61,280 bases of DNA from a virus (taxonomy: Duplodnaviria; Caudoviricetes): positions 1 through 61,280 of the IMG/VR virus record IMGVR_UViG_3300034121_000204; one strand, written 5' to 3'. A program made the translations under genes and the position numbers. This document shows, piece by piece, positions 5,970 to 29,200 of the stretch. Below the pieces are notes generated by a model. It had not been told where the DNA came from and ran no database searches. It was given only the letters and a program-made list of their open reading frames with translations. Each line of letters opens with the position of its first letter. Position 1 is the stretch's first letter.

Positions 5970-6346
5970 GACAGTTAGTTTATAATGCAGTTACTTGTGT
6001 TGATTGCTTGGATACGATAGTTAGCTACCACAGACATGACTATAAGACATGTAGATGCGAGAATCAGGCAATGGTTGATGGTGGTACTGATTACATCAGG
6101 TATGGTGGAAAGGACATGAAGAAGGTTGTGCACCATGCTGTATACGATGACGAGGACTTTTCAAAGGTAAGGCAGTACGCAAGTAGAGGTAGTCGTGGAA
6201 AGGATGGTTTAATGAAGTTGACATACATACCTATTAAGGATTTAGACGATGACTACCTACAATCAATACTAGAGTATGGTGGTGCTAATTGGCACTTAGA
6301 TTTAATTAAGAAAGAAATAAAATATAGAGAAGATGGAAAGATGTGA
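5966..6346 (+). CDS. putative zinc-binding phage protein
   Basis: CxxC...HRHDYKTCxC...VDGGTDY. Confidence 0.65.
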   Translation: MRQLVYNAVTCVDCLDTIVSYHRHDYKTCRCENQAMVDGGTDYIRYGGKDMKKVVHHAVYDDEDFSKVRQYASRGSRGKDGLMKLTYIPIKDLDDDYLQSILEYGGANWHLDLIKKEIKYREDGKM

Positions 6347-6653
6347 ATGCTGTGGATCAATCATTAAGATAGGTGACATATCCAATTTTTTAAAAATAAT
6401 CAATGATATAATAGAGCGTGATGATTTGAATACTAAATCAAGAAGCAGGCATAAGACTCATAAGAGATATTTCTTGTATAAAAAAATGCGAGAGAAGGGA
6501 TTATCATTTGAAGGGATTGGTAATTATTTCGGTAGAGATCATGCAACTGTAATGCATGGTATAAATAAACATGATTTATTTTCAGAACAAAAAGATACAG
6601 TTTACTTAAAAGATACCGAAGGATATGATAACTTATTTCAAATCAATCAATGA
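6333..6653 (+). CDS. DnaA C-terminal-like helix-turn-helix protein
   Basis: LSFEGIGNYFGRDHATVMHG matches the DnaA domain IV signature RDHxTVxH. Confidence 0.8.
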   Translation: MERCECCGSIIKIGDISNFLKIINDIIERDDLNTKSRSRHKTHKRYFLYKKMREKGLSFEGIGNYFGRDHATVMHGINKHDLFSEQKDTVYLKDTEGYDNLFQINQ

Positions 6654-8988
6654 CACATCAGCTCCTTATCATGTTGACGTAAGTGTTGCAATAGACAGAA
6701 TAAGAAATGGTAAGTCAAAAGAATTAGTTGAGGCTGTAAGGAATGAGACAGAGAAAGATAAAAGGAACGAAAAGAAGAAAAGACTTCCTGCTGTTTGTTT
6801 CTCAGGCACATTCTCACGCAGAGCTGACAATGCTATTATTGAGCATAGTGGGATTATATGCATAGACTTTGATGGATTCAGAGACGAGCAGCACTTATTC
6901 GCTAAACGTCAAGAGCTTGTTGACGATAACTACTCTTACTGTGTATTTACGTCACCATCTGGTGATGGTATTAAGGTGTTGGTAAGGATTCCAAAAGATC
7001 CTAAGAACCACAAGAAGTACTTTAATTCTTTGCAGAAGCACTACAACTGCGATGAGTTTGATGTTACTTGCAAGAACATTAGTCGTGTATGCTACGAGTC
7101 TTATGATCCTGACATTCATGTTAACGAGTTAGCATTGATATGGTCTGACATGGAAGGCTCTGATGATTATAAGCCAGCAGTTCGTCCGATGATAAAGGTT
7201 GACGACACCAACGAGATAACAAGACGTTTGACACTATGGTGGTGTAAGAACTACGGAATGATTCCTGGACATCGTAACAATAACTTGTATATACTTGCTT
7301 GTGCGTTTAATGAGTTTGGTGTTGACAAGCAGACAGCTAGGAGTATTATTGATGGTTACGACACTAACGGAGAGATGGCTAGAGAGATACCAACGTTGGT
7401 TGAAAGTGCGTACAAGAACACAGCTATACATAACACTAAGTTCTACGAGGACATTGACAAGACTGTCGCAATAAAGAACGACATAAAGGTTGGTGTACCT
7501 TTGGAGAATATACTAAAAGAATACACTAATGTACCTGCTGATGTTATTGAGCACATCAGTTCTGAGGAAGATCCGAATAGGTTCTGGACTAAATCATCTA
7601 AAGGTAAGATTGATCTAGTACCTCACTTGTTAAGAGACTACCTAAGTAACAATGGATTCTATAAGTACTACCCTGAGGGATCTAACAACTTTGTTTTTGT
7701 ACGTGTACATGACAATGTGATAAGCGACTCCAATGAGGAAATGATAAAGGACCACATACTGAGCTACTTGAATAACATCGGTGATATGTCAATCTATAAC
7801 TACTTTGCCATGAACACTAAGTTTTTTACAGAAAACTTTTTGAACTTTTTACCAAAGATTGACGCTAGGTTTATGACTGACAATTCAGAGACAGCATACC
7901 TATACTATAACAACTGCGCTGTAAAAGTAACGCGTAGAGGTGTTGAGAGTATTGACTACAAGGACTTGAATGGTATTGTGTGGGATGATCAAAAGATTAA
8001 ACGTGACTTTATTGAGTCATCATTTGTTGATTGTGAATTTAGAAAGTTCATAACAAACATTTCTGGTGATGACAAGGAACGTGTAAAATCAGTTGAGTCA
8101 ACGATTGGTTACTTGATGCATAGCCATAAGCCAGCAAGCTACTGTCCTGCTGTAATACTTAATGATGAGGTAATTAGCGATAACCCTGAGGGTGGAACTG
8201 GTAAGGGTATATTTGTTAAGTCTATCAGCCACATGAAGAAGATGGTTATAATTGATGGCAAGGGATTCAGCTTTCAGAAGTCGTTCCCATATCAGAGAGT
8301 TCAGGTAGACACTCAGGTACTTGTATTTGATGACGTTAGCAAGCACTTTGACTTCGAGAGGCTATTCTCTGTCATAACCGAGGGGATAACGCTTGAGAAG
8401 AAGAATAAAGACGAGATACATATCCCATTTGAGAGATCACCAAAGATTGTCATAACAACTAACTATGCTATCAAGGGAGCAGGTAACTCATTTGAGAGAC
8501 GTAAGTGGGACTTGGAGTTAAAGCAGTACTACAATAAATCATTCACACCTGAGACTGAGTTTGGTCACATGTTGTTCAGTGGATGGGATGAGTACGAGTG
8601 GAATAAGTTTGACAACTACATGATAAGTAACCTACAGTCTTACCTTAATAAAGGACTAGTGCGTAGTGAGTTCAAGAACTTAAAGACTCGTAAGTTTATT
8701 GCAGAGACAAGCTCTGACTTTTGGGAGTGGGCTGTATCAAATGATAACGTACATACCAAAGCTAAAATCAAGTCGCTAGGACAAGACTTATTTAATTCAT
8801 TTACGCAAGAGTATCCTGACTATGCTACTTATGGTAGGTTTAAAATATCACAGAACAAGTTCTATAGATGGATAGATAGCTACGGTGAGTTTGCATTTGG
8901 AACAAAGCCAGCTGTGTCAAGGACAGCACTAGGTAAGAACATTGAATTTATTGTAAAAGAGAACGAACAACTAAATCTTAAATTATGA
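6625..8988 (+). CDS. primase-helicase (VirE-N/BT4734-like primase, PriCT-like region, P-loop ATPase)
   Basis: KKRLPAVCFSG, IDFD, FTSPSGDGIK; GHRNNNLY; Walker A GGTGKG, Walker B LVFDD, ITTN. Confidence 0.85.
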   Translation: MITYFKSINDTSAPYHVDVSVAIDRIRNGKSKELVEAVRNETEKDKRNEKKKRLPAVCFSGTFSRRADNAIIEHSGIICIDFDGFRDEQHLFAKRQELVDDNYSYCVFTSPSGDGIKVLVRIPKDPKNHKKYFNSLQKHYNCDEFDVTCKNISRVCYESYDPDIHVNELALIWSDMEGSDDYKPAVRPMIKVDDTNEITRRLTLWWCKNYGMIPGHRNNNLYILACAFNEFGVDKQTARSIIDGYDTNGEMAREIPTLVESAYKNTAIHNTKFYEDIDKTVAIKNDIKVGVPLENILKEYTNVPADVIEHISSEEDPNRFWTKSSKGKIDLVPHLLRDYLSNNGFYKYYPEGSNNFVFVRVHDNVISDSNEEMIKDHILSYLNNIGDMSIYNYFAMNTKFFTENFLNFLPKIDARFMTDNSETAYLYYNNCAVKVTRRGVESIDYKDLNGIVWDDQKIKRDFIESSFVDCEFRKFITNISGDDKERVKSVESTIGYLMHSHKPASYCPAVILNDEVISDNPEGGTGKGIFVKSISHMKKMVIIDGKGFSFQKSFPYQRVQVDTQVLVFDDVSKHFDFERLFSVITEGITLEKKNKDEIHIPFERSPKIVITTNYAIKGAGNSFERRKWDLELKQYYNKSFTPETEFGHMLFSGWDEYEWNKFDNYMISNLQSYLNKGLVRSEFKNLKTRKFIAETSSDFWEWAVSNDNVHTKAKIKSLGQDLFNSFTQEYPDYATYGRFKISQNKFYRWIDSYGEFAFGTKPAVSRTALGKNIEFIVKENEQLNLKL

Positions 8989-9314
8989 AATACTGCGATG
9001 GATTAATTAAAAATAGGTTAGACTTTACCGAGAAGCTTCATGGATTCGCCAAGCATGGTACAAGAAGAAAAACTGAGCTTTCAAAGATGTGTAGAGACTA
9101 CAAGGAAGCTCATGACTATCTTACTGGTAAGATTGAAGCTGTATCTTTTGTTCCTGAGTATAGCATAAGAGAACTAAAGCGGCAGTTCCTTTGGTTGAAT
9201 TATGATCGAGAGCTTCACTCTGAAGCAATTGAGGAGATAGATTATTATGTAAATAAAATGAAAGAAGATGGAGCTAAGAGATTATCAGACGAGGATAGCC
9301 AATCAAGCAGTTGA
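8985..9314 (+). CDS. hypothetical protein
   Basis: 109-aa ORF coupled to the primase stop. Confidence 0.6.
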   Translation: MKYCDGLIKNRLDFTEKLHGFAKHGTRRKTELSKMCRDYKEAHDYLTGKIEAVSFVPEYSIRELKRQFLWLNYDRELHSEAIEEIDYYVNKMKEDGAKRLSDEDSQSSS

Positions 9315-10503
9315 CATACTTAAAAGACTTCATATTGTTTATATTGCAGCTATGGTACGTGTAGGAAAAACATTAATGGCTTTAGAAACAGCAAAACTAT
9401 ACGGAGCTAAACGAGTTTTATTCCTAACAAAAAAGAAAGCCATATCATCTATTACAAAAGATTATAATGAATTTGGTTATCAATTTGAATTGGTAGTAGT
9501 AAATGACGAGTCAATGCATAAGTTAGAAGATACTAACTATGACTTGGTTATACATGACGAGCATCACAGATTCGGATCATTTCCAAAACCAGGACTAGCA
9601 ACTAAGACATACAAGCAGATGTTTGGCAACAAGCCAATGATATTCTTGTCAGGTACAATGACACCAGAGTCATTCACCCAAGTGTACCATCAGTTCTGGG
9701 TATCACATCACAGCCCATTTAAACATTACGTCAACTTCTATAGATGGGCTGATGACTATGTAAATAAGTTTCAGAGAAATATTAACGGCTTCTTGGTAAA
9801 TGATTACTCTAAAGGAAATGAACTAAAAATAATGGTTGCTATTGCTCCTTATGTAATTACATTTACACAACAGCAAGCAGGCTTCTCTACTGAGATTGAG
9901 GAAGAGATATTGCATATCGCGATGAGCGATAAGACAAAGATGATTGTGAAGAAGTTGGAGAAGGACTTAGTTGTGGAAGGTAAGGATGAAGTTATATTGG
10001 CTGACACACCAGTTAAGCTTATGCAGAAGCTTCACCAGTTGTGGAGTGGTACTGTCAAGTTTGAGAGTGGCAACAGCATGGTTATCGACACTACTAAAGC
10101 TGAGTTCATAAAAGATAAGTGGCGCGACAATAAAATAGGCATATTCTATAAGTTTAAAGAAGAACTGAGCGCATTGAAGCAAGTGTTTGGTGACAGTCTA
10201 ACAACTGAGCTTGATAAGTTTGATAATGAAGGCTATCAGGTTATAGCCTTACAAATTATATCAGGTCGTGAGGGTATATCCTTAAAAAATGCTGAGTATT
10301 TGATTTTCTATAATATTGACTTTAGTGCAACTTCTTATTTTCAAGCGAGAGACCGTCTAAGTCACATGGGTAGGTTAAAAAATAAAATATATTGGTTGTT
10401 TAGTGAGGGTGGTATTGAGGATAAGATATATAAAGCTGTCAAGGAAAAAAAGAAATACACAGTAAATATATTTAAAAAAGATTATAAACACTTAAATATA
10501 TAA
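9268..10503 (+). CDS. SF2 (SNF2-like) helicase
   Basis: Q motif LRDYQ, VRVGKT, DEHH, LSGT, REGISL, QARDRL. Confidence 0.9.
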   Translation: MELRDYQTRIANQAVDILKRLHIVYIAAMVRVGKTLMALETAKLYGAKRVLFLTKKKAISSITKDYNEFGYQFELVVVNDESMHKLEDTNYDLVIHDEHHRFGSFPKPGLATKTYKQMFGNKPMIFLSGTMTPESFTQVYHQFWVSHHSPFKHYVNFYRWADDYVNKFQRNINGFLVNDYSKGNELKIMVAIAPYVITFTQQQAGFSTEIEEEILHIAMSDKTKMIVKKLEKDLVVEGKDEVILADTPVKLMQKLHQLWSGTVKFESGNSMVIDTTKAEFIKDKWRDNKIGIFYKFKEELSALKQVFGDSLTTELDKFDNEGYQVIALQIISGREGISLKNAEYLIFYNIDFSATSYFQARDRLSHMGRLKNKIYWLFSEGGIEDKIYKAVKEKKKYTVNIFKKDYKHLNI

Positions 10504-10508
10504 GAATT

Positions 10509-10712
10509 ATGAATAAAATACATAAACCTAAAGGATCACCAAGTCCTGAAGAAAGAGCGTATAGAATTATTACATATATAGGTCTCGATGCTGGTATTAA
10601 AGACGCAGTAAGAAACATAAGTGAAGTAATAAAAGAAGGCAATATAGAAAGGTCTCTTTATTATTATGAAGTTTTGTATCATTTAACAGTATTAAAAGTA
10701 GGAAAACAATAA
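10509..10712 (+). CDS. hypothetical protein
   Basis: 67-aa ORF; its TAA stop is the TAAC of attC-like site 1. Confidence 0.6.
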   Translation: MNKIHKPKGSPSPEERAYRIITYIGLDAGIKDAVRNISEVIKEGNIERSLYYYEVLYHLTVLKVGKQ

Positions 10713-10838
10713 CGTTTTGCGGCTTTGTGTCAGTGCCGTTTTTTAAACTGGTGTTTAATAATTAAAACAAAATAACAATGAAAACAGAAACTTCAAAAAT
10801 AGACAAAACTAAGGCATTGCATAAAGCCGATGTTAGGC
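10707..10838 (+). mobile_element. attC-like recombination site 1
   Basis: CAATAAC ... GTTAGGC ends; arms CGGCTTTGTGTCAGTGCC / GGCATTGCATAAAGCCG form an imperfect inverted repeat with an extrahelical base. Confidence 0.75.
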
Positions 10839-10987
10839 GTAGTGCCATCTTCAACTTAACAGATGTAGATAGATTAAAAAGGAGTGATAAACTTTGGAAG
10901 AAACTTTCAAAAGAACTTGATGTGTTACAAGACAATAACTATACAGCAAGGAAGTTGTTTGATTATGTGGAACGGCATTACGCCTAA
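10778..10987 (+). CDS. cassette-borne hypothetical protein
   Basis: 69 aa; starts in the loop of site 1 and stops in the TAAC of site 2. Confidence 0.65.
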   Translation: MKTETSKIDKTKALHKADVRRSAIFNLTDVDRLKRSDKLWKKLSKELDVLQDNNYTARKLFDYVERHYA

Positions 10988-11111
10988 CGGCAAAGCATTG
11001 GCGAAGGCGGGGATTTGTAGTACTACCGCTTGTTAATGCACAAATGATAAATTAAGTACTACCGTTGAGTAAAAGCACTTCTGCCCCGCTTTTGCCAATG
11101 CAATGTTATAG
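10982..11111 (+). mobile_element. attC-like recombination site 2
   Basis: GCCTAAC ... GTTATAG ends; arms GCATTGGCGAAGGCGGGG / CCCCGCTTTTGCCAATGC. Confidence 0.8.
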
Positions 11112-11122
11112 GGCGTTTATTT

Positions 11123-11377
11123 ATGTACGGATTTTTCAAATTACCAATATCAGATAAAAAAATGTCAAAGGTGATGTATGCACTTTTAAGGACACAAAGC
11201 AAATTAGTCAACTCATACAGCCATAGCATTAACCAATACGATAGAAAGCAAAGTAGTGGTTTCTTGGTTGATGTTGTTGTAGAAGTTGACGAGCATAAAA
11301 TAAAACAGTTTGAAGAATTGGCAGAAGTCAAACTACAAACGAGTGAGGATTTTCAGGGTAAAATGGTTGTTAACTAA
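11123..11377 (+). CDS. cassette-borne hypothetical protein
   Basis: 84 aa; fills the space between sites 2 and 3. Confidence 0.65.
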   Translation: MYGFFKLPISDKKMSKVMYALLRTQSKLVNSYSHSINQYDRKQSSGFLVDVVVEVDEHKIKQFEELAEVKLQTSEDFQGKMVVN

Positions 11378-11382
11378 ATGCC

Positions 11383-11434
11383 CTATAACAGTCGTACAGG
11401 CGATGGCTTTAGTCTCGCTTGTACTTTGTTATAT
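11383..11434 (+). mobile_element. attC-like recombination site 3 (short)
   Basis: CTATAAC ... GTTATAT ends; arms GTACAGGCGA / TCGCTTGTAC. Confidence 0.65.
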
Positions 11435-11441
11435 TTTTATT

Positions 11442-11449
11442 TACATTTG
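11442..11449 (+). promoter_or_regulatory. Bacteroidota -7 promoter box TACATTTG
   Basis: TAnnTTTG match just upstream of the VRR-NUC start. Confidence 0.55.
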
Positions 11450-11456
11450 TCAGTAA

Positions 11457-11726
11457 TTGGCAACAGAGCAGCAAATACAATCTAAATTAATCAAACAACT
11501 TGAGAAAGAAGGTTACTATGTGATCAAGCTCTCTGTCACCAATAAGACAGGTATACCAGACCTTTTAGCAATACCTAAGAACGCAGATGTGCACTTCATT
11601 GAGGTGAAGCGTCCTGGACAAAAGCCAAGACCTTTACAAGTATTCAGACTTAAAGAACTAAACAAGCATGGCGTTAAAGCAACAGTCTACGATGGTACAC
11701 AATTCTATAATGTTCCAGAAGAATAA
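11457..11726 (+). CDS. VRR-NUC domain nuclease (Holliday junction resolvase-like)
   Basis: EQQIQ, GIPDLL, FIEVKRPG, RPLQ. Confidence 0.9.
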   Translation: MATEQQIQSKLIKQLEKEGYYVIKLSVTNKTGIPDLLAIPKNADVHFIEVKRPGQKPRPLQVFRLKELNKHGVKATVYDGTQFYNVPEE

Positions 11727-12030
11727 GTATAGAATAAAAAAATTATGTGCCGAAGGGAAAACAATTAAACAAATAAGCTCGATAACAGGTGTCGCAGAAT
11801 ACATTGTTCAAAGAAACCTAAGAACAGCTATATCAACTCATTACGGAAACATAGAAATAGGTCATAAGGATGAGCCTTACTATGAAACCGAGGAAGAAAT
11901 GTTAAATGAAGTAGAATATAATTTTAATAATTTAAGCGATGGAGAAAAAGAGATCTATAACCAACGAGAAAAAGATGGTGAGCTTGGTAGGTATTTTACC
12001 AGTACTAATGGACTTTATGGAGGACATTAA
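11710..12030 (+). CDS. helix-turn-helix protein
   Basis: GKTIKQISSITGVAEYIVQRNL; likely start MFQKN at 11710 (track gives 11668). Confidence 0.55.
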   Translation: MFQKNKYRIKKLCAEGKTIKQISSITGVAEYIVQRNLRTAISTHYGNIEIGHKDEPYYETEEEMLNEVEYNFNNLSDGEKEIYNQREKDGELGRYFTSTNGLYGGH

Positions 12031-12220
12031 GGATGTGTATCCAAGAGTATACAGCAAGCAAATAAAGAAGGCAGGTAATGAATTTATTACCGAGGTATTG
12101 AAACACACCGATAATATTTACAAGAAAATGGAAATGGAAGATGATCAAGACTTGAGGGACTTCTATTACCAAGTAGATAGCTTTGGAATAGTATTTAGGA
12201 ACTGGTTAAAAGAATTGTAA
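11939..12220 (+). CDS. hypothetical protein
   Basis: 93-aa ORF in operon context. Confidence 0.55.
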   Translation: MEKKRSITNEKKMVSLVGILPVLMDFMEDIKDVYPRVYSKQIKKAGNEFITEVLKHTDNIYKKMEMEDDQDLRDFYYQVDSFGIVFRNWLKEL

Positions 12221-12221
12221 C

Positions 12222-12449
12222 ATGGGAAAGATAATTTTAGAATTCGATTCAGTCGAAGAACAAGATGACGCGCGAGATGCGTTAGATGGTTACAAATGGA
12301 AACTAGCTGTTTGGGATATTGATCAGCATCTTAGAAGTGAACTTAAATACAACGACAATATAAAGGATGATGTATATGATGCGCTTGAAAAAGTAAGGGA
12401 TGAAATTAGAGATATATTAGAAGGCTATGGAATCCAACTTGACCACTAG
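12222..12449 (+). CDS. hypothetical acidic phage protein
   Basis: 75-aa ORF in operon context. Confidence 0.65.
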   Translation: MGKIILEFDSVEEQDDARDALDGYKWKLAVWDIDQHLRSELKYNDNIKDDVYDALEKVRDEIRDILEGYGIQLDH

Positions 12450-12690
12450 AGGAGTTTATTGTGTGGATGTCATATTAAAGGCAATGCCTATCTCTATGAA
12501 CTCCAAACTGCCTAAAATTTTAAAGACATTAGAGAACATACCTATAGCCTTGGACGATAACTTAAAGCCATTGCATGAGAACTTCATAAAAAAAATGATA
12601 AAAAGAGAAAACGTCTGCAAATATAAGATAAATTATCAAATTATCATAAAAAAATACTTGTCTGGGCTATGTTATGATATAAATAAGTAA
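12427..12690 (+). CDS. hypothetical protein
   Basis: 87-aa ORF. Confidence 0.5.
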   Translation: MESNLTTRGVYCVDVILKAMPISMNSKLPKILKTLENIPIALDDNLKPLHENFIKKMIKRENVCKYKINYQIIIKKYLSGLCYDINK

Positions 12691-12706
12691 TATATTTGTG
12701 TTCATA

Positions 12707-12874
12707 ATGGAAAACATCAACTATGTAAATGCAATAATAACCGAGATTAATGATCTAACGGATTGCATATACGAGTCTTTAGTTGATGCAGACTATAAAG
12801 AAATGAAATCAAATATACAGAACTTAATAAGAGTTCTTAGAGACCTAGACAAAACACATGAAATCATATCGTGA
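12707..12874 (+). CDS. small hypothetical protein (55 aa, MENINYVN...HEIIS)
   Basis: Read manually; preceded by TATATTTG at 12691-12698. Confidence 0.55.
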   Translation: MENINYVNAIITEINDLTDCIYESLVDADYKEMKSNIQNLIRVLRDLDKTHEIIS

Positions 12875-13967
12875 TAGAGCTATACATCTTTACTTTGAAG
12901 AAAATAAAGGACCTAGAGAAATAGCTAGACAATTAACACAAGAGCTTAACCTTAATGAAAATATTAAATCAATTGAAAGAAACATATTCAATTGGACAAA
13001 AGATAAGGGGTTATATGAGGCTTGTGAAATAGCAGGTATAGACTATGAAAATGTAAGTCACTATTGGCACAAAGGTAAACACTTCAGTATCAATGTAAAG
13101 AAAGATAAGTCATTCAACCATGATGAATTTAAGAAGGACTTAATTAATGAAATATCTAACTGGAGTCCAAGCTATCCGAAGTTCAACAGAGAAAAAACAT
13201 CTGACGGACATTGCCTTATTTTTGATCCAGCTGACATACATATAGGTAAGATTTGCTCTAGCTTTGAGACAGGTGAAGACTACAATATGCAGGTAGCTGT
13301 ACAAAGAGTTCGTGAGGGCATGCATGGCATATTAAGTAAGTCAGCATCTTTTAATATTGACAAGATTATTTTTATAGCAGGTAACGACATCCTACATATT
13401 GACAACCCAAAGCGAACGACAACAAGTGGTACGCCACAGGATACTGATGGAATGTGGTACGATAACTTCCTTACTGCCAAGAAGTTACTAATTGAAATCA
13501 TAGAGACATTGATGACAGTAGCTGACGTTCATGTTGTATACAACCCAAGCAACCACGACTATATGTCTGGCTTTATGTTGTTGCAATGTGTTGAGGCTTG
13601 GTTTAGTAAGTGTGAGCAAGTTACATTTGACAATGACATGAAGCATAGAAAGTATGTTGCGTATGGTAAGAACTTAATTGGATCTACTCACATGGATGGT
13701 GCAAAGCAACAAGACTTACCGCTACTAATGGCTCACGAGTCTGGTTCACTATGGCATCAGTGTAGACATAGGTATATATACGGACACCACATACACCACA
13801 AAACTTCAAAAGACTATATGTCAGTATGCGTAGAGACATTACGTTCACCAAGTGGTACTGACAGCTGGCATCATCGTCAAGGATATCAACACGCACCAAA
13901 AGCTGTTGAGGGTTTTATACATCACCCTGAGCATGGACAAGTTGCCAGGTTAACACATTTATTTTAG
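12858..13967 (+). CDS. calcineurin-like metallophosphoesterase with N-terminal HTH
   Basis: DIHIG, GNDILH, SNHD, THMD, GHHIHH; N-terminal GPREIARQL. Confidence 0.85.
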   Translation: MKSYRDRAIHLYFEENKGPREIARQLTQELNLNENIKSIERNIFNWTKDKGLYEACEIAGIDYENVSHYWHKGKHFSINVKKDKSFNHDEFKKDLINEISNWSPSYPKFNREKTSDGHCLIFDPADIHIGKICSSFETGEDYNMQVAVQRVREGMHGILSKSASFNIDKIIFIAGNDILHIDNPKRTTTSGTPQDTDGMWYDNFLTAKKLLIEIIETLMTVADVHVVYNPSNHDYMSGFMLLQCVEAWFSKCEQVTFDNDMKHRKYVAYGKNLIGSTHMDGAKQQDLPLLMAHESGSLWHQCRHRYIYGHHIHHKTSKDYMSVCVETLRSPSGTDSWHHRQGYQHAPKAVEGFIHHPEHGQVARLTHLF

Positions 13968-13968
13968 C

Positions 13969-14133
13969 ATGATAACAGTTGAAGAAATGATAGCTGTAGT
14001 TGAGAACTACATCTACGACAAGAAAAAAGTAAGGGTGCGCATCGAATTACGATACCACCCTTTACTTATTCATTCAGACCTTAGCAAACTTAACTATTGT
14101 TATGGTGTTGCTTTAGATTACTTTAAAATCTGA
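13969..14133 (+). CDS. small hypothetical protein (54 aa)
   Basis: Read manually (MITVEEMI...DYFKI); converges on and overlaps the stop of the giant gene. Confidence 0.5.
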   Translation: MITVEEMIAVVENYIYDKKKVRVRIELRYHPLLIHSDLSKLNYCYGVALDYFKI

Positions 14134-17100
14134 TCGGCTGTTTGGCCATTCTTAATTTTTGTTAAATCAGAAACAGTAGGCTCACCTATAGCCTTCATTA
14201 ACTTTAGGTACTCTCTCCCTTGACGTTCTGTCAGACCGCCATTCCTTTCTATGAACTTGATTTCATCAATGGCTGTTTCGGATTCTTTCTTAGCTTTTAC
14301 CATATCAATCTCCCAAGATTTTAGATTACGTCCAAGATCTTTCTGTACAGTCTCGTATCTGTCGTATTGCTTCTCAGTGACAGCTTTCTTTTTGATTCTT
14401 TTTATGTAATCTCTAGATATTGCTCCTACATCTTTTGGTAACAATCCAGTAGAATATAAAAGTGTAGGAAACACAGCTAATCCTACATCTTTACGATCAG
14501 CTTCTAAAAGTTTTTTTGGAGTCTCTCTTCCTTGATAATCATCAATAAATTCTCCAGTTGCATATAGCTTACTTATCTCACCTAGTTCTTTGTATGTATC
14601 CCCAGCAATACCAATCATTCCATACTTTCTATCGTTATCATCACTTATGTATAACTGATATGTTGCTTCTTTCTTGATCTTTTCAATATAATCAGCTTTA
14701 GCTTTATCATCCATTGGATCTTCACCTTTTAACTCTAGCACTTTATTTCTGCTATTAACAGCATCTTTTATTTCTTTATCGTCCATCCAAGGGTACTGCC
14801 CTAATCCTAAATTCAATCCCATAGTTACTATATCATCTAGCATTGGAAGTGGAGAAATAATATCATTTAAAACACTTTTTATTGGGTTCTTAGTAGCATT
14901 GATAATTTTCTTTTTCTTTGTTTCTTCATCATCTTCATCACCAAGTAACCAAGCTGCAATTTGATCATATAGAAGTTTAATTCCGTATCCAAGTAATTGG
15001 TATGTAGCTAATTCAGCACCAAGTCCACGAAGTGATCTCCACGCTATTGCTTTATCTTCATTAGTTGCAGTACCGCTTGAAACAGTAATTAAATCATTAT
15101 ACATCCTAGCCTTTTGGTTAATTATAAATGACGCAAATGGAAGGAAAATTTTTCTAGTCATTTGAACATAAGGATTCTCGCTTGCTAAGAATTCACCTGC
15201 TAGCATTGGATCAGATATATTCTGCTGTCTATCAACCATAATCTGAGCATATTCAGCAGCTTCTTTATCCATCTTATGATTCTTCCAATCAATGTCAGTG
15301 TTTATTCCTCTACGATTTAAATTTTGCAAGTAGTAAGACTTAAATGATGACCTAGCAACCCATACATCTGGCTTAACGAGTAATTGTTTCAACCACCACT
15401 GATTTATATCAGCAATCTTTTTAAACACTTGATCTGTTGTTTGACCTTTCGCTTCTAATTGTCTATCAATTGAATCAATTGTTGATTGTGATTCAAAGCC
15501 ACGATTTGAAATTGGCATACCTGTTTCATCAAGCCACGCATTAAAATCAGCATTTACAAAATCTAATCGACCAGCATTCATAAATGTATTTACAAGTACT
15601 GGAGTTGTCTGCATTAATGTCTGATTGACACCAGCTAGTGCCTTACCAACACCTAGTGATGTTACGTAATTGACAAATTTATTTAGGTACTCTATTGTAT
15701 CTCTTGGAACTACATTTTTACCTTTAGCTCTTTTAATGTAAGTGCTTATTCTTCTTTCAAGTATTGTTCTATCATCAGATTCAGGAACTAATTTTTTGAA
15801 TTCTTTTGAGCTAAGGAATCCATCTACTTGTCTAATTGCAGATGCTGTATTAATATCAGTTAATGCAGATTTAAGTGCCTTTGAGTTATTGGTATCAAAA
15901 TCAAGACTAATATATCCATTTGTAGGTCTTGTTCTTGTTGTTTCCATTAATACACCTGACTTATTCTTATCAACATTATTAATAGATACATTGAAAGATC
16001 CATTCTGATTAGTTAAACTTTCATCAAGTCCTGTATCTTTAGAAGATAAATTTTTTATTGAACGTGGTGTATAGCTTAAATCACTAGTAAGCATAGTGTT
16101 GTATACAGATAAACTCACATCAAATAATTCTGGTTTATATTTTGACCATTCGTTAATCCACCAATCAACAGCCTCTAAATTATTTTTGGATGCGTTAGCA
16201 TTAATTACATCCATATCCATTGAGTCTACATTAAGCTTATCATATACCTCTTTATATAGCTCACCCATTTTCTTTTCTTTAGAGTTTCCATCTTCAATTA
16301 GTAAATCAATTGATTCTTTTAATATCTTAACTCTATTTTGAAATTCAGCTTGCGTTTCAGACTCAGTACCAATAATGTTTCTTTTTAGCTCAGCAAGCAT
16401 TCCCCTTTCATATACGTTCTTAGCATCCATGAAATCTTTTCCTTTAGCAAATAATTGTTTTGAGTATTTGTCAATTATTTGGTTATGCTGTCTAATCGCT
16501 TTATTAACTCCGTTAATTACATTTAGCAACCCCATCTTTCTCATTATATCCATTGAGTTGGAAACACCACCAAACATCTTCTCCATTAAGTTTGGAAGTG
16601 AATATAATTGATCGCTATAAACTTTACCTATTGTTTTAATTCCAAATAATCTTAATGCTCTAGCGACCTTACCTCTATTAACAAGTGATTTAACATTTAA
16701 AGCTCCCTCATAAGAACTAGCTGCTGCCTCAAGACCACTTGTTATTTGGTTAGTTATAAAGTTATCTACTCCTTCAACAATCTTAATTGATTCTCTAGTT
16801 GACATCTCATTCAAGTCAATCTTTAGAACTCTTTTCATTAAGTCCTTCTGACTGTCTTCGAATATAATCTCCTCTCCAGTCATAGGATCAACACCTGTCT
16901 TGAACATTGTCTCTAATGTAGATTTCATTCCATTCATTCTTGACACTAAGAACTCTTTTGCTTTTGATTCTTTGTCAACAGTTTCGTCTGGATTTTCTTT
17001 TAATGAATTAATTATTTTTTGAATTTCATTAAATGACATATCTTTTGATAGTCCTTCAATATCTTCATAAGTAGCAATTAGTTCATCTATCTTTATTTGT

Positions 17101-20100
17101 TCTTGACGATCAATTTCATTCTTAGAAAATTCAGATATATCAGCTATGTTTGCTGCTTGTTTCATCACATACTCTTCATCTTTTCTACGTGATGGCTTAA
17201 CGGCATTCTTAACTTTCTCAGCTATCTCCATGTAAGCATCAATATCCTCAACAAGTGATGGATCAATCTTGGTAAACTCTTTAGCCATACCAACTACCTC
17301 AGCTTGGTTGTCAGTCTTTAAATCCTTACGAATGCTTTTTCTTAATGCAAATGCCTTGCTTAATCTATCTTGATAGTCAGCTCTTTGAAATACTCTCTCA
17401 GCATAATTTGTAAATCGCTCAACCATGACAGGATTGTCAAGATTTAAATAACTTATACGTTTTATTAATACGCCTGCTTGTGGAGTTTTAATTTTACCAA
17501 GTTTAACCATATTACTGATGGCATCACTAAGCATCTTTCTCTTAATATTTAAGTCAGCCTTAGCATCACGAGCAGCACGAGCTTCCATTCTAATCTGATC
17601 TTTTAATGCCGTATACTCGTTGACAGTTACCTTTTTTGCTTTTGGCTTACCTAATACTTTAGCAACAGATGGAGCTTTAACTTGCGCTTTAAAAGCATCT
17701 TTTATTTCCTCTTCACTAAATCCTTCTTCATTTAAATATTGTTTGATTGCAGCATCAGATATACCATTATCCCTTGCTATTACGAGAATATCTACTGCTT
17801 TTTTTGGTCGTCCTTTAGAAAATAATACATCAATATTTTTTATTTCTTTTGATGTTATTTCTTTACCACCTAAAAGAGAAGCAAGTGATCCATCAATAAA
17901 TTCATTAAGATTGATATTTTGAAATTGCTCAGGAGTTAATTTATCAAATGCCTTGAACTTAGATTTAACATAACTAAATACAGCGTTTAGCCAATTCTTA
18001 AATTTAGATTTTTTACCTGCTTCAATTAATGTTTCACCTTTATTAGCAATAAGTTCAGCTAGTGCTTCTTCTCTTGCTAGTTCAACATCTCCTAACTCAG
18101 CTATTTTTCTTTTCAATACTTCAGTTCCTTCTAAAAGATTATATCCTTTGTCAAGTAATTTAGGATTATTTTCTTTTAGGAATCCCATCCAAACATGTGC
18201 GAATTCATGTATAGCTGTATTTGAATTTGCTTTTTCAGGGTTCAAAAATACCTTTCCATCTTTTGTAAATCCATAAACTATCTCGCCATCTTTAACAAAT
18301 TTTTTAACTTCTGGATTCTCAAGTGCTTTATTAAATTCTTCTTGTGTTTCAACTACAGTAACTGAAGGAAATGCAAGTCTAAGTTTCCCTAAAAGTTTTT
18401 GAAGTTCAGTCATTTTAGTTGAAATCTTAGCACCTCTAAATGCTTTTATTCCTGCTATTGGACCACTTGCTGCTACTGCTTGATCTATTGCCTTATTAGG
18501 AGATGGTAACTTACCTGCCTTATCTTCTTTATTTAAGTAGAATGATTTACCATACATCTCTGGAAATATATCAGCTGCATGCACAGGAGATTCTAAAATA
18601 CCAATCAACCCACCTTTTACACCATATGGATAGTTTCTGTGTTTTGGATTTGTTATTCCAGGGTTTAATACATCAACACCAGTAATGCCAATAATATGAT
18701 TAGAAGGTATTTCTTTTGTTGATTCATCTTGTATTGCATTATTTATTGTTTGAAGATGTATATACTTATAGTAAGATGCATCCTTATTACCAACTAAAGC
18801 TAGTGCTGATTTACTTCTAGGTTTCCCTGGTTTTGTTTCTTTATTTAATTGAATCCCACCTGTAAATAAAAATCTAGTAACATTTGCTCTTTCACCAATA
18901 GGCTTTAAGTTATTCATGTTATCAAGAAGTTCATCTATAGTTTTATAGTTATTTTCTTTTATAAATGATATAACTTTACTATCTGGATTAACAGCTGATA
19001 TATCTTCAATTAAACCATTTAATGAGTTAACTCTTTCTGCTTTATTAAATTTTTTCTTTATTGTATCAGAAGCAAATCTAAATAACGCTTCATTTGTTTG
19101 AATAGAATCTTGTCCCATTTTAACAATGGCCATAGGTACTTGTCCTTGCGGAAGTTTTCCTTCAGACCAAAGTCTATCAAATAAATCTTTATTTTTAGAG
19201 TATACCTCTTGTGCTCTTGAAAGCATTCCTTCAGCTTCTTTTTTATCAGTGTTAGCCCAAGCACTATTCTCATTTCCTTCCGTAAGATTAAATCCTATAC
19301 CACCATTTACATCAATTGTATTTCCTGTAAATTCATTCTTTACATTTCCAGATGTCAACTGATCAGATATAGTAAATATCATTGGTATACCATTATAATC
19401 TGATATATCTTTTATTATACCTCCTTTAAATGCTGCCTTTAATTTATCTCCAAATCTTTTAACTAAAGAGCCTATATTTACTTTACTCTTAGTAGTTAAA
19501 TTAGAAGGAACGTCAAAATTAGCTATATCTTCAGACATAGCATTCATTTCTTCAACTACTGAGTCAACTTCTGGAGCTTGTGTAGCTAAATTAGGATTAA
19601 ATACTATTATATTTTGTATATCTTGTTTTTGAGTTTTAAGGTTAGTATCTGTAAATCTAATAGCTCCAAAACCTTGATTTTCTAACTCATCATAAACTTT
19701 ATTTATATCTTCATCAGATAATGATGTTTCAAATCTAGGATCTAATAATTCGAATAAATTTAAATCATTAACATCCCATCCTTCTTCTTTAGATTTTAGC
19801 CCTAATTTATTTATTACATCAAATGCTTGTTCTTCTTCTGCAATTATATTTTCATCTATATCAAATTCAGATACAACTCCTTCATTTTCTTTTGTATATT
19901 CTTCAGCTTGACCTTTATCTTCACTCACAAACAAAGGGGTTTCTTTATTTACATTTGTTAAGTCACTAACATTTCCACCATGATAAACCTTTATAGTTTG
20001 TTTTCCTTTTTGGAATTTAGGTTGTCCACCAAATAATCCACGTAATTTATTTACTTCTTCTTGGACACCCCTGCCTTCGATAGGGCGATTGCCAAGATCT

Positions 20101-25275: not shown

Positions 25276-26292
25276 TTACAGAAAACTTTTGAATACTGAA
25301 GTGCCTACTGCAAACAATTTGACTTGCTCGATAGAATCGTTATATAAATAAACATTCATGTAGTAACCCCTAGCTCCAAACGACTCAGCTTGGCTATTTT
25401 TAACACAAATTAAGAAATCAGTAAGTAATGGAGTACTACCAACTACTGTGTTGACAGTAATTGAGTTTGCCGATAAGTTAGTTATTGTTCCAACTAGAAC
25501 TAAATTACCACCAAAATTCTTATATAAACTATCTCCAATGCTTATACTTGAGTCAATATTAAATGAGAATGTAAGCAACACAGCTGATGGATTTGCAATA
25601 TTCCTAGTAGTAGGCAAACCAACACCTTGAGTGGATAGTGCCTTTACGTCAATTGTATCGTCAAATCTTCTGATGTAAGCGTACCATTGGTTCTCTTTCT
25701 CAACGAAATACGTGTAGTCAATTGAACCAGCACTTATGTTTGTATACACATCAGCAGTCCAAGGATGCGAACTGTTTAATGACAAAGTGTTAAACACCTT
25801 TACAGTTAATGGATCGTTGTTGAAAATAGTTCTTACGCTAGATTGGTATGGTTGGCCATAAAAGTTATTTCTTGTTGTATTGACATTGTGTCTCCACAGC
25901 TCTCCATCCTTGAATGTATAAAAAATACTATTCATCTCAGTCATCCAGTCTGGCTGGTAAGACCAAAATGAACTCCATCCCTCAGCTACTTTTGAGTAGG
26001 TTACTGTCCTTCTAGGAGTGCATTCCTCAGCACTAAATCCTGAGAAGTATGTTGCATCGCTATCATTAGTAAATTCAGCAGTTGGACACTCTAAATCTTC
26101 AGCTAACACCCACAGCTTTATTTCATCAGCTGAAAGAATCCACTTTGTACCATCCCAATAAATTGAAAAAGTAGTTCCATCATAAATAAATTCATAATAG
26201 TTCTTTTCATTTACAAGTCCTGTAGATACAACTTCTATTGATACAGGCTCTTCACCTATTGGAATGTAATTTATTTTTATACAGTCACACAT
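25276..26292 (-). CDS. tail nozzle/stabilization protein, C-terminal part
   Basis: TVTYSKVAEGWSSFWSY, FYTFKDGELWRHN, FVEKENQWYAYI, ARGYYM resemble the C-terminus of crAss-type muzzle proteins. Confidence 0.65.
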   Translation of the reverse strand: MCDCIKINYIPIGEEPVSIEVVSTGLVNEKNYYEFIYDGTTFSIYWDGTKWILSADEIKLWVLAEDLECPTAEFTNDSDATYFSGFSAEECTPRRTVTYSKVAEGWSSFWSYQPDWMTEMNSIFYTFKDGELWRHNVNTTRNNFYGQPYQSSVRTIFNNDPLTVKVFNTLSLNSSHPWTADVYTNISAGSIDYTYFVEKENQWYAYIRRFDDTIDVKALSTQGVGLPTTRNIANPSAVLLTFSFNIDSSISIGDSLYKNFGGNLVLVGTITNLSANSITVNTVVGSTPLLTDFLICVKNSQAESFGARGYYMNVYLYNDSIEQVKLFAVGTSVFKSFL

Positions 26293-26294
26293 AA

Positions 26295-29200
26295 TTAAAA
26301 ACTTTGATTACTGAATGATAATACATACGTGTTGTTATATGGATCATACATACCTAACTTTTGAGTATTTGGGTTATCCTTCATCTCATCTCTAAAGTAG
26401 TTCTGCATGCCATTTGCTGATATTTCAATAACTTGATCTCCAGACATCTGTAGTACAGCACCTCTTCTTGAATCAGTAAAGAACATCACGTTTGAATATA
26501 TCGCAAAGCTCTCTGGATTGTTGCTAATACCATACTCTGATGGGTGAACAATCTGATTACCAAGTACTTCAGGAACAGACGCTACTTGACCACCTCCAAC
26601 AGCATCAACTAACAAGTTCTTTCCATAAAGAACTGACGTTATTTTGTCCTGCTGTAATACCATTAGGTTGGTATCCATAGCGTACAACTTCTGTATAGGT
26701 CCGTACTTAATATCTAAATTCTTGAAGTTCGCTTGAGATAAATTAAAAGAGTTAAGTCTGTTGGTTGATGTGTCACCTTTATAGATACCACTATAACAAA
26801 GAGCAGCGAATTTATTTTGCTGTTGATAGTCCTCAATAACACTTGTTGCTCTTGGACTGTACTTCATTGTAGGTCTCAAGAAGTTGTCATATATTCTGTA
26901 TGACTCAACACCATTACCAAATGCAAAGGCATTGAAGTCTGAATTATGTGACGTTACATTATTAAGTTCAACTATTAAAGGAGTAACACCATTTTGATCT
27001 TGTTCCCAGTCTTGGTAGAACACACTACCTGTTGCAGAACCAGAAGGCAATGTTGGTAAATCGATTACAATAGCATATTCATTTATAACCCAAAGTATAT
27101 CATAATAAGCACTAGGAGGGCCAAATGCTGCTAAAGGATCATCATTTTTAACATATACTCTTTCGCCAGCATTGAATGAATGCTTCATATCGTTGGCTGT
27201 ATCACCAAATGGTGTAGATGGCCCTAATACTGTTTTATTTAAGTAAGCGGTTGGTACAGATCCTACTGGCCATGCACCACCATAAGTATAGTCATTCCAT
27301 CTCCATGATACCTTATGATTACCACTTTCTATTCGATATGTATTACGCATCTCATAGAATATATCAAGATCTGATGCCAATGGAACTGTTTCAGCTGTTA
27401 ACTGAACTGTTGGAGTTTGAGATATTGTTAACTGAGTTGATATTTCATTTCTACTACATCCATCATTAACACCAACTCCTCTTATAAGCATACATAATAA
27501 TCCTGTATTTACATTTGAATCTTCAGCTATATAATTAGTAGAATAAGCACCTAAAGTATTTTCAACTCCACTTGAATTTGATCTTCTAAATGATACATTT
27601 ACAGCAGATGTAACTAAGGTATCAGATTGATTTTTATATTTAAATGTTTTATAAGCTCCAGATTTCCAAAACCATTCTTCTAAATTTCTGTAATAGTTAT
27701 CACTTGTCCAACTATTATTTTGTGATCTAATTGGATCAGAACTTAATGGTGCTCTATCTCTTAATATATTTATATTTATAGTTGCTCCTTGATATATTGG
27801 ACCATTATATAATAATATTGAATGACCTCCATAATCAGCAGGATCTAAACCATCCATTGTATCATCTGAATTGGTTGGAATACCACCCTTTTGAGAAATA
27901 GTTAATCCTGAATATCCATTTATAACAGTTTTTAATAAATCTCCATTTATTAAGTTTGCTCTTACATTAAATACATATATATCTCCAGGCATATAAGTAT
28001 CTTGAGCAAAAGTCAATATTATTGGGCCTTCTGGGCTTGATATAGTAGAAGTAAATGGAGATGATGTAGGTATTAGTATTTCAGCACTTAATCCAATGTT
28101 TATATCTGGATTATACGTATATTTAAAATGAGTTGGTGTTGCATTTGGATCTCCTGCTACTGGCATAATTATAATAGAAAATCTTTCATCTTTATCTCTA
28201 GTAGCAATACCTGAAGCTGCATTAATATCAGGAGCACCATTTTGAAATGGATATATTAACGTGTTATCTCCATTACTAGCGTAATATGCTTTTTCAAATT
28301 GAACCAATGAGGATCTTAATGTTACAGGGCTTTTAGTTTCTGGATCACCCAAACAACCACTATCTCTTGGACCTCTTCCGTTGTTGGAAGATGATATATT
28401 CTGAGCAATAGGACCATTTAAAAAAGTATCACTTAAATCAGCTTTAATTTTGAAATACAATCCTTCAATAACAAATGGAGAACTAGCTTGTTTGTACTCA
28501 AGCTCAAGTATTTTAAATTGTTTATTTGAATGAGTTGCTACACCATTTGATGTCTTGAATATAATATATCCACCAACAGTAATCTTATCTCTATCTGACT
28601 CATTTATTAAAAAATACCTAAATACGCCATCAACAACAAAAGTATATGGAAATATATTATAGTAGTCACCTTGAGACTGCTTAATTGCAAACCTATAGTT
28701 AGTGGCCCACACAGGTGGCTCGTTAGTAAGATTTACTCTTATTGAGTTAGCTGTGTCAGAATTTATAGGGGGTATATATAGTGTATTTGACTTACTTGTT
28801 AAAGCAGTTGTCATTCTTCCATAATCATCAGTATATATAATACCAATCTCATAATCACGATCACTTCTAAATGTTTTTTTAGGAAGTGTAGTTATAGCCT
28901 CATTTTCTAGCGATAATGTATAAGAAGGTACAATTTTATCACCATCTCCATTGACAATATCTCTAAACTGAACATAGTTACCATAGATTAACCTATTGCC
29001 AATTATCTCTTGAGCTTTTGCGCTTAATGGAACATTATCGAATAGTCTTGTTACCTCGCTAGACTCAATAGGCGTGTATATCTTATTTGCACTAAAATCT
29101 ATAGTATATACAGAATTATTAGCAATTGATAAATCAGCTTTATCGTAGTTCTCTACAATATATACATTAAGTGCATTCGTGTCATAATAAAGTACTTGTA

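Follow-up and report, generated by a model that had tools for sequence, protein, structure and literature searches.

A probable integron-like cassette array in a phage genome, and its hairpin sites in Flavobacteriaceae

How can single small genes enter and leave a phage genome in which no integrase is found? The question is raised by the viral record IMGVR_UViG_3300034121_000204, whose whole analysed stretch (the window) is a complete phage genome of 61,280 bp with direct terminal repeats. Between a helicase gene and a gene for a VRR-NUC nuclease, the window holds three small open reading frames (ORFs) and three hairpins of the form TAAC...GTTA. The hairpins lie at 10710-11431 and enclose two cassettes with complementary ends. 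An earlier note, made from the sequence alone, had read this interval as an integron-like cassette array in a phage without an integrase.

The interval 10710-11431 is probably a two-cassette array belonging to an integron-like, structure-specific recombination system that is common to Flavobacteriaceae and their phages. [quoted passage not shown] As the earlier note had claimed, no integrase was found in the phage, either by Pfam on the 55 ORFs of the window or by a six-frame search of the genome with PF00589, a search that was positive in 14 of 14 control genomes.

Hairpin sites and cassette ends

Sites 1 and 2 can be recognized from sites in other phages. A covariance model, R1, was built from an alignment (A1) of 35 distinct sites, all of them from other phages, with a predicted consensus structure. 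When the window genome was searched at E<=10, exactly two matches were obtained, both on the + strand. Site 1 (10710-10835) scores 84 bits over its full length (E 1.4e-15), and site 2 (10985-11108) scores 38 bits (E 1e-5). Because R1 was built without the window and matches only these two places in it, sites 1 and 2 belong to the R1 family.

The alignment shows what is conserved. In A1, 90% of 723 cells are paired, as against 67.5% in shuffles, none of 500 of which reaches 90%. Changes on both sides are seen in 15 of the 16 pairs of the variable helix, and the covariation score is 0.551, compared with 0.16 for shuffled alignments and at most 0.17 for slid controls. The hairpin structure is under selection. 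Mean column identity of the 35 sites is 48%, and only the cores are invariant, an invariance that A1 has by construction, since the training sites were chosen by a scan that required TAAC and GTTA. Independent R1 matches in bacterial chromosomes keep (T/C)AAC...GTT(A/G).

The two strands of a site are not equivalent. The modelled strand has 64 G.T cells and 5 A.C cells, a count that is somewhat biased because the structure prediction permitted G.U. In integrons, the bottom strand has an excess of G:T and carries the AAC of the R' box at its 5' end, where exchange occurs (Nivina et al. 2016, PMC5027507; this and the other papers cited are drawn on in part). The + strand of the window is the counterpart of the integron bottom strand. 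On its AAC arm, the predicted consensus leaves a 5-nt bulge and one further base unpaired.

Site 1 consists of TAAC, a 5' bulge, a variable helix, a loop of about 70 nt that contains the ATG of the ORF o69, and GTTA. It is 80% identical to a site at 2933-3058 of L035, a contig of an unrelated 42.5-kb phage. Site 2 has arms delimited by a repeat finder, which pair over 33 nt at 73% in an inverted-repeat search (10980-11012 with 11084-11116). It folds at -25.4 kcal/mol on the + strand and at -21.9 kcal/mol on the - strand. Among the 259 TAAC..GTTA pairs at 24-150 nt spacing in the whole genome, site 2 ranks first (arm score 14) and site 1 second (11), while site 3, with a score of 8, equals the background maximum and is tied with four other pairs. 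The single-stranded folds of the sites are only modestly better than those of shuffled sequences (z -1.6 to -2.7), and folding energies alone are weak evidence for the sites.

Site 3 (11386-11431, + strand) is a short resident hairpin beside the VRR-NUC gene, made of TAAC, a 10-bp stem, an 11-nt loop and GTTA, and followed by a T-rich run. In four related contigs (L004, L005, L007 and L015) it is kept from TATAAC onward despite different upstream genes, and their comparison gives one compensatory pair in the stem. Site 3 acts as an insertion or partner site adjoining the VRR-NUC gene. Three attC-like sites had been proposed for the window. Two of them are confirmed as members of the R1 family; the third lies outside it, though it is the recombination partner in the exchange described below for run X4.

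The ends of each cassette are complementary to each other. In cassette 1, 14 of 15 nt pair (93%) between 10832-10846 and 10974-10988, and the mismatch is a G.T on the + strand; in cassette 2, 18 of 20 nt pair (90%) between 11104-11123 and 11371-11390. In a repeat search, the three hairpins and both end pairs were present within 3 nt of where the earlier note had put them. It had also correctly seen two upstream stop codons in TAAC, which are those of the ORFs o67 (10710-10712) and o69 (10985-10987). Its remark that the outer ends of a site do not match each other holds only in part, since those of site 2 pair to some extent in the minimum-energy fold (CGCCTA with TAGGGCG).

The same rule of complementary ends can be followed through other arrays. 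The 12 nt that follow a site were compared with the 12 nt that lead up to the next one, and 56 of 74 adjacent intervals from 10 arrays formed 10 or more of the 12 pairs. Controls reached this in 7 of 74 cases when both flanks belonged to one site and in 37 of 656 when the sites were not adjacent; both intervals of the window pass (2/2). Those that do not pass are mostly long and probably contain a site that was left unscored. If the arm after GTTA is called X and the complementary arm before the next TAAC is called X', the commonest mismatch sets a T of X' against a G of X, a fixed number of nucleotides away from the core.

Searches by sequence recover little of the family. Degenerate whole-site patterns find only 1-6 of the 35 known sites. 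Of 12 viral contigs with an 18-mer from site 2, only L040 is related; the other 11 are unrelated DNA (GC 0.45-0.72) matched by chance. A 19-mer from site 1 brought no new contig, only the one known before. R1 gave no match in 32 related helicase loci, and Rfam gave no related match at E<=10 in 9500-12500.

Exchange units in phage genomes

Evidence for the unit of exchange is provided by close relatives. Twenty public runs hold parts of the window stretch as assembled (Logan) contigs. In run X4, which comes from another lake sample and another study than the likely source of the window, position 10984 is followed directly by 11386 in a contig of 1752 nt and depth 8.9, so that 401 nt are missing, and four letters (TAAC) fit either side of the joint. 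No other letters differ on the 61-nt left piece and one differs on the right piece. What is lost is exactly the predicted unit 2, namely site 2 with the ORF o84, and the loss is bounded by the TAAC cores of sites 2 and 3. Parts of unit 2 are present on contigs of runs X2, X3 and X5, and no joint at the cassettes was found in these three runs; other contig joints, with short sides of 20-24 letters, were left out.

The unrelated phage contig L035, which was found through part of o69, carries eight co-oriented sites in 3.5 kb. Their scores are 11-18 against a background of at most 9, and 7 of its 7 cassettes have complementary ends. One of the sites resembles site 1 of the window, with an ATG in the loop and a shared leader peptide. 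A search with this array led to the cultured Flavobacterium phage hattifnatt9-1, which has at least ten such sites, and 47 records are at least 95% identical to its array region.

Exchanges can be read in cultured Flavobacterium phages as well. The phages lillamy9-1 and lillamy9-7 carry a 439-nt unit on opposite sides of a 3.6-kb block, with flanks that are 100% identical, and each of the three junctions lies in ATAAC(G) or TTATAAC. In lillamy9-7, one unit is deleted exactly between two TAACGTT, and in lillamy9-6 a unit is replaced by another between TTATAACGTTT and TAACGT. With the X4 joint included, seven junction sets are each confined to a stretch of 4-7 shared letters with TAAC in it, and the crossover is placed to within these letters rather than to a single phosphate. 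Across the hattifnatt, lillamy and snusmum phages, identical hairpins share their downstream flanks and differ in their upstream flanks.

Because the junctions lie at TAAC in X4 and in the lillamy phages, the hairpin travels with the gene that follows it. In the window, and on its + strand, this places cassette unit 1 at 10714-10988 and cassette unit 2 at 10989-11389 (401 nt, present or absent among lake samples), with limits that are ambiguous by the four shared letters. The earlier note had expected precise gain or loss at the core, and this is what the X4 contig and the lillamy phages show, at the left TAAC core rather than at the G/TT of the right core. Since the exchange lies at TAAC and not at G/TT, the circle that it had drawn (10833-10988 with arms to 11105) is the wrong unit; that of cassette 2 is the hairpin and the following gene, 10989-11389.

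A mechanism can be proposed on this basis. The mobile unit consists, on the + strand, of the hairpin body, GTTA, the short arm X, the cargo, the complementary arm X' and TAAC. Exchange occurs within TAAC, the core that forms the hairpin's 5' edge and corresponds to the AAC triplet of the R' box on the attC bottom strand. When the unit is circular, it would form one long, fully paired hairpin, X'-TAAC-body-GTTA-X, while in an array the arms that flank each hairpin come from two different cassettes. Site 3 would be the resident site where cassettes entered. The enzyme would be a host recombinase that acts in trans on phage DNA during infection, with the folded + strand as its probable substrate and circles as the probable intermediate.

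The cargo of cassette 1 is read together with its site. The 69-aa ORF o69 (10778-10987, + strand) draws its first 20 residues or so from the loop and 3' arm of site 1 and the remainder from the cassette cargo. Its N-terminus matches a site-encoded leader in L035 at 50% over 30 aa, and its residues 27-69 match a non-cassette ORF in L034 at 74%, a homology that stops at TAAC. Judged by these matches, o69 is a chimera of site-encoded leader and cassette cargo. Phage sites also serve expression, as the loop of site 1 gives o69 both its start codon and its leader.

Cassette 2 carries o84 (11123-11377, + strand), an 84-aa conserved protein with no known function. It has 46 homologues at 57-96% identity and no Pfam or PHROG family, and the pattern method found none of its relatives in viral contigs. 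Among nine metagenome loci, o84 is a cassette in four (L137 and L139-L141) and a plain gene in five. Three of the four cassette loci (L139-L141) have short sites with CAAC/GTTG cores, as judged by eye.

Methyltransferases are another kind of cargo. In L007, a methyltransferase gene starts GTTATACACAA after another TATAAC...GTTATA hairpin and ends TTGTGTATAAC before the conserved hairpin, which is the same cassette grammar as in the window. Many cassettes in the first 9 kb or so of the vB_FspS phages (L055, L056-L060) are DNA methyltransferases. The Polaribacter phage P12002L has a 58-nt TAAC...GTTA hairpin beside a methyltransferase gene (L053 38879-38936, - strand), with a flank that reads TTGC-NNN-TAAC; by eye this hairpin resembles the R1 family, and it was not scored by R1. 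A missing methyltransferase has been linked to poor plating on a second host in cultured Flavobacterium phages (Nilsson et al. 2020, PMC7077304). The words hairpin, cassette and variable region are not used in the portion of that paper drawn on here.

Chromosomal arrays, a candidate recombinase and the rival explanations

Sites of the same family are also found in bacteria. A search with a cassette methyltransferase led to contigs of metagenome-assembled genomes (MAGs) that bear R1 sites. One Flavobacterium MAG has at least 59 R1 matches (150 of 5739 candidates scored), dispersed over many contigs. Five of its contigs hold 51 matches, co-oriented within each contig, and two of these contigs are chromosomal by content (uvrB, histidine kinases, rhomboid). 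Chromosomal arrays have 13-16 scored sites per 10-20 kb and follow the rule of complementary ends. In 4 of 4 annotated chromosomal arrays the ORFs lie on the strand opposite R1, so that, in the manner of integrons, the site comes after its ORF. In the window, as in every phage array, R1 and the ORFs share a strand, and a gene is preceded by its hairpin. Among 61 sampled Flavobacteriaceae genomes, 20 have an R1 match at E<=1e-6.

A candidate enzyme is encoded beside some of these sites. It is a tyrosine recombinase of 363 aa, which lies some 570 nt upstream of an R1 site truncated at the end of its contig. Among NCBIfam families it matches XerA/integron integrase (207 bits, cut-off 220) and the integron integrase TIGR02249 (206.8 bits, cut-off 265) best, with XerC and XerD lower; against NF011946 it reaches 138.6 bits, with a cut-off of 435. 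Among solved structures it is closest to VchIntIA, the Vibrio integron integrase (2A3V, 143.8 bits); XerA and XerD score lower. In the alignment to 2A3V, the recombinase has no counterpart of chain residues ~214-246, the stretch that makes up the IntI-specific insertion and contacts extrahelical bases. Smyshlyaev et al. (2021) describe an 'integron-like' subgroup of recombinases with incomplete conservation of the insertion.

Relatives of this recombinase (34-55% identity) are present in 37 of the 61 genomes. Downstream of it, on the opposite strand, 16 of 30 loci have at least one R1 match of 20 bits or more, with 20 such matches in all. The first R1 site lies 436-750 nt past the recombinase stop in 11 loci, and one further locus has an upstream match. 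Only 1 of 19 control regions 50 kb away has R1 matches (Fisher 6e-4). The arrays that the earlier note had proposed to seek beside a tyrosine recombinase in the host family are thus present. Its label of IntI and CALIN stands in part: the recombinase is related to IntI, but it falls below the IntI cut-off and lacks the IntI insertion, and in the strict sense the label does not apply.

Two of these chromosomal loci show further details. In L118, the recombinase stop and the first R1 site are separated by roughly 570 nt (2320-2890), which hold no long ORF and are rich in short repeats such as GAAACG and CCGAA; this could be an attI-like binding region. In L132, a Flavobacteriaceae chromosome, R1 sites and cassettes occupy the 2.8 kb that separate an Arm-DNA-bind_5 ORF from a Phage_integrase ORF (6828-7418 and 10180-10809), and it looks as if cassettes had been inserted into an integrase gene of Bacteroidetes type.

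The chromosomal arrays can be compared with sedentary chromosomal integrons of the Vibrio and Xanthomonas type. Both have long arrays, cassettes of about 400-900 nt, cargo mostly of unknown function, and closely similar sites within one genome. Unlike those integrons, the Flavobacterium MAG has its arrays on many contigs, most of which carry no recombinase, and one array has its cassettes inside a split integrase gene of the Bacteroidetes type.

An unlikely explanation, though the best placed of the rivals, is that of a canonical CALIN, in which ordinary attC sites would be recombined by a classical host IntI, as in other virulent phages. The likeness to attC and CALINs is considerable: imperfect hairpins that vary in sequence and keep their pairing, AAC/GTT cores (PMC9892861, PMC5027507), an exchange in AAC at the 5' edge of the best-folding, G.T-enriched strand, co-oriented arrays, an ORF followed by its site in host chromosomes, and phage arrays without an integrase. 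Much of the integron logic in the earlier reading is thereby upheld, including cassette ends that re-form one site in the circle. Precedent exists too, since Qi et al. (2023, PMC9892861) searched 10,705 phage genomes and found 17 CALINs, of which one belongs to a Polaribacter (Flavobacteriaceae) phage; IntI1 recombined 5 of 6 phage attC sites. The word 'Flavobacterium' is absent from one supplementary file of that paper.

The differences lie in the sites, in the enzyme and in the layout. R1 sites pair further beyond the core, over about 12-15 nt that include a fixed T:G wobble and a cassette-specific triplet, and their unpaired bulge is predicted on the AAC arm, whereas in attC the extrahelical bases lie on the arm opposite AAC. 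R1 is silent on phage P12002L, and IntI1 did not recombine the one site of that phage which by eye resembles the R1 family (PMC9892861). The recombinase beside the arrays is below the cut-off for TIGR02249, lacks the counterpart of VchIntIA residues ~214-246, and is co-directional with an array that starts past its stop, at the distance given above in 11 of the 16 loci. None of four array-bearing genomes has a match above the IntI cut-off. Phage cargo is inverted relative to the integron convention, with a site that precedes the gene and can give the start codon. Integrons are regarded as almost confined to Proteobacteria, and Bacteroidetes as nearly devoid of them; for Bacteroidetes, the passages of the IntegronFinder 2.0 paper drawn on here report In0 elements and one Salinibacter integron only (PMC9024848).

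The variant integron-like system may also be set beside phages that borrow a host recombinase. In the CTX-phi type, XerCD integrates folded single-stranded phage DNA at dif. Here too, a host tyrosine recombinase of the Xer/IntI branch would act in trans on a hairpin in one strand of phage DNA. The difference is that a whole phage genome is moved at dif there, and single genes within or between genomes here.

Somewhat less probable than a CALIN is shuffling without a dedicated recombinase. The hairpins would be regulatory stem-loops (terminator and promoter) between which genes are shuffled by homologous or microhomology recombination at short cores, like the promoter early stem-loops (PeSLs) of T4-type phages. 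PeSLs are sequence-conserved promoter and stem-loop motifs at gene borders and are thought to act by homologous recombination. In both systems stem-loops border small genes in a hyperplastic region of a lytic phage and have a role in expression, single genes are present or absent between close relatives, and shuffling mediated by PeSLs has been published (PMC2839356, PMC4122927). The window offers a T-rich run after site 3 and start codons inside site loops, and the interval between helicase and VRR-NUC is hypervariable in relatives, also at junctions that lack hairpins. No recombinase is apparent in the phages: PF00589 has no six-frame match in any of 10 phage records, and an all-against-all protein comparison gave no shared candidate enzyme among four phage groups.

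Against shuffling at PeSL-like motifs, the junctions of the R1 sites share only 4-7 nt, and the stems covary rather than keep their sequence. Complementary cassette ends, which have no role in repeat-mediated recombination, hold in most intervals (56 of 74). Sites are present in chromosomes too, where they are antisense to the genes, keep the G.T bias on the same strand and are linked to a tyrosine recombinase. A consensus scan of 10300-11800 gave no terminator-like site, with a loop limit of 8 that would exclude site 3, and a scan for sigma-70-type promoters was at shuffle level (6 against 5.6 expected).

Elements of the IS200/IS605 type have an HUH (Y1) transposase and subterminal hairpins at both ends. 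Miniature transposable elements, whether MITE-like (miniature inverted-repeat transposable elements) or IS200/IS605-like units moved by a transposase that acts on single-stranded hairpins with TAAC as target, are very improbable: inverted repeats of 15-20 nt do bound each gene, the junction is fixed at 4 nt and elements are dispersed over many contigs of one MAG, but there is no transposase or HUH (Y1) domain by Pfam in the 55 window ORFs, each unit has one hairpin rather than one per end, the arrays are co-oriented tandems in which neighbours share one core copy instead of scattered insertions with target duplications, and the sites are linked to a tyrosine recombinase.

Several points weigh against an integron-like system shared by Flavobacteriaceae and their phages. 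The core invariance and the G.T count are each affected by how they were obtained, as described above, and site 3 is not matched by R1. Site 1 and its counterpart in L035 share the hairpin and not X, while the o84 locus L137 and the window share the arms and cargo (X-o84-X') and not the hairpin body, so that over long times TAAC was not the sole breakpoint. Recombination is read here from comparison of assembled sequences. The link to the recombinase is, on present data, one of neighbourhood: presence of its family is not associated with that of R1 (14 of 20 R1-positive and 23 of 41 R1-negative genomes), and for most of the chromosomal arrays examined, the contig carries no recombinase. No cargo is common to the phage cassettes and eight chromosomal array loci.

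A broader reading has about an even chance of being right. It holds that Flavobacteriaceae and their lytic phages share an integron analogue missed by standard detectors, with distinct attC-like hairpins, an IntI-related recombinase without the insertion, and arrays in chromosomes and in at least three unrelated phage lineages. The phages would have reversed it by setting the site before the gene, where it gives promoter, start codon and leader, and would swap small accessory genes and DNA methyltransferase genes through the host enzyme within days to years. No earlier description of an R1-type system was found in the literature searched.

If this is true, a common aquatic bacterial family has its own version of the integron, which standard tools may miss. 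Strictly lytic phages would hold working arrays, a concrete mechanism for the single-gene mosaicism of hyperplastic regions. Cassette exchange of DNA methyltransferases would be a fast route of escape from restriction, because many cassettes are methyltransferases and their presence has been linked to plating efficiency on a second host (PMC7077304). The system is directly testable, as phages and hosts are in culture and natural variants that differ by one cassette exist.

Neighbouring genes of the window phage

By Pfam on the 55 ORFs, the window phage is a podovirus that encodes muzzle proteins of crAss type and a primase of BT4734 type. Crassvirus muzzle domains (PF25729 and PF25731) and a 2876-aa ORF without a Pfam match lie at 25276-30005 and 14118-22748 (- strand). 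It looks like a small crAss-related podovirus of lake water. No tRNAs were found, and a DNA search of 9000-13000 against 50,697 phage records matched the helicase only.

The array is bounded by two backbone genes. On its left, a helicase of SNF2/ResIII type (9268-10503, + strand) matches Pfam ResIII, Helicase_C and SNF2-rel and PHROG 62 (DNA helicase). On its right is the VRR-NUC gene (11457-11726, + strand), which encodes a nuclease like Holliday junction resolvases (Pfam VRR_NUC and Hjc; PHROG 93, 5702 and 6591). The helicase is encoded in 32 viral contigs, in 29 of which VRR-NUC is next, with a gap of 2 nt to about 1.5 kb. By tblastn, o67, o69 and o84 have no match in any of these 32 helicase loci. 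The first of them, o67 (10509-10712, + strand), is a 67-aa ORF of no known family whose stop TAA is the TAA of the first TAAC core, and it has no cassette-type boundary on its upstream side.

Some relatives show rearranged borders in this interval. In L026 (6123-6184), the helicase runs nearly straight into the VRR-NUC leader, with a junction after TATAAC inside the 3' end of the helicase gene, and the helicase match is in two pieces. Compared with L004, L005 has about 82 extra nt (6703-6785) with ATAAC/GTTAT cores, a copy of a right arm of site-3 type and a small palindrome, which looks like a remnant of half-sites left by earlier exchanges.

Just 5' of VRR-NUC, TACATTTG at 11444-11451 is kept in an alignment of relatives. 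It fits TAnnTTTG, the consensus of the -7 box of Bacteroidetes promoters.

Only one protein has matches among the four groups of site-bearing phages in the all-against-all comparison. It is a helix-turn-helix (HTH) protein of DnaA-C type, probably a replication protein, encoded at 6333-6653 in the window, 8321-8677 in hattifnatt, 20933-21319 in G001 and 34903-35382 in P12002L. The pairs that match are the window with hattifnatt, G001 with hattifnatt, and G001 with P12002L.

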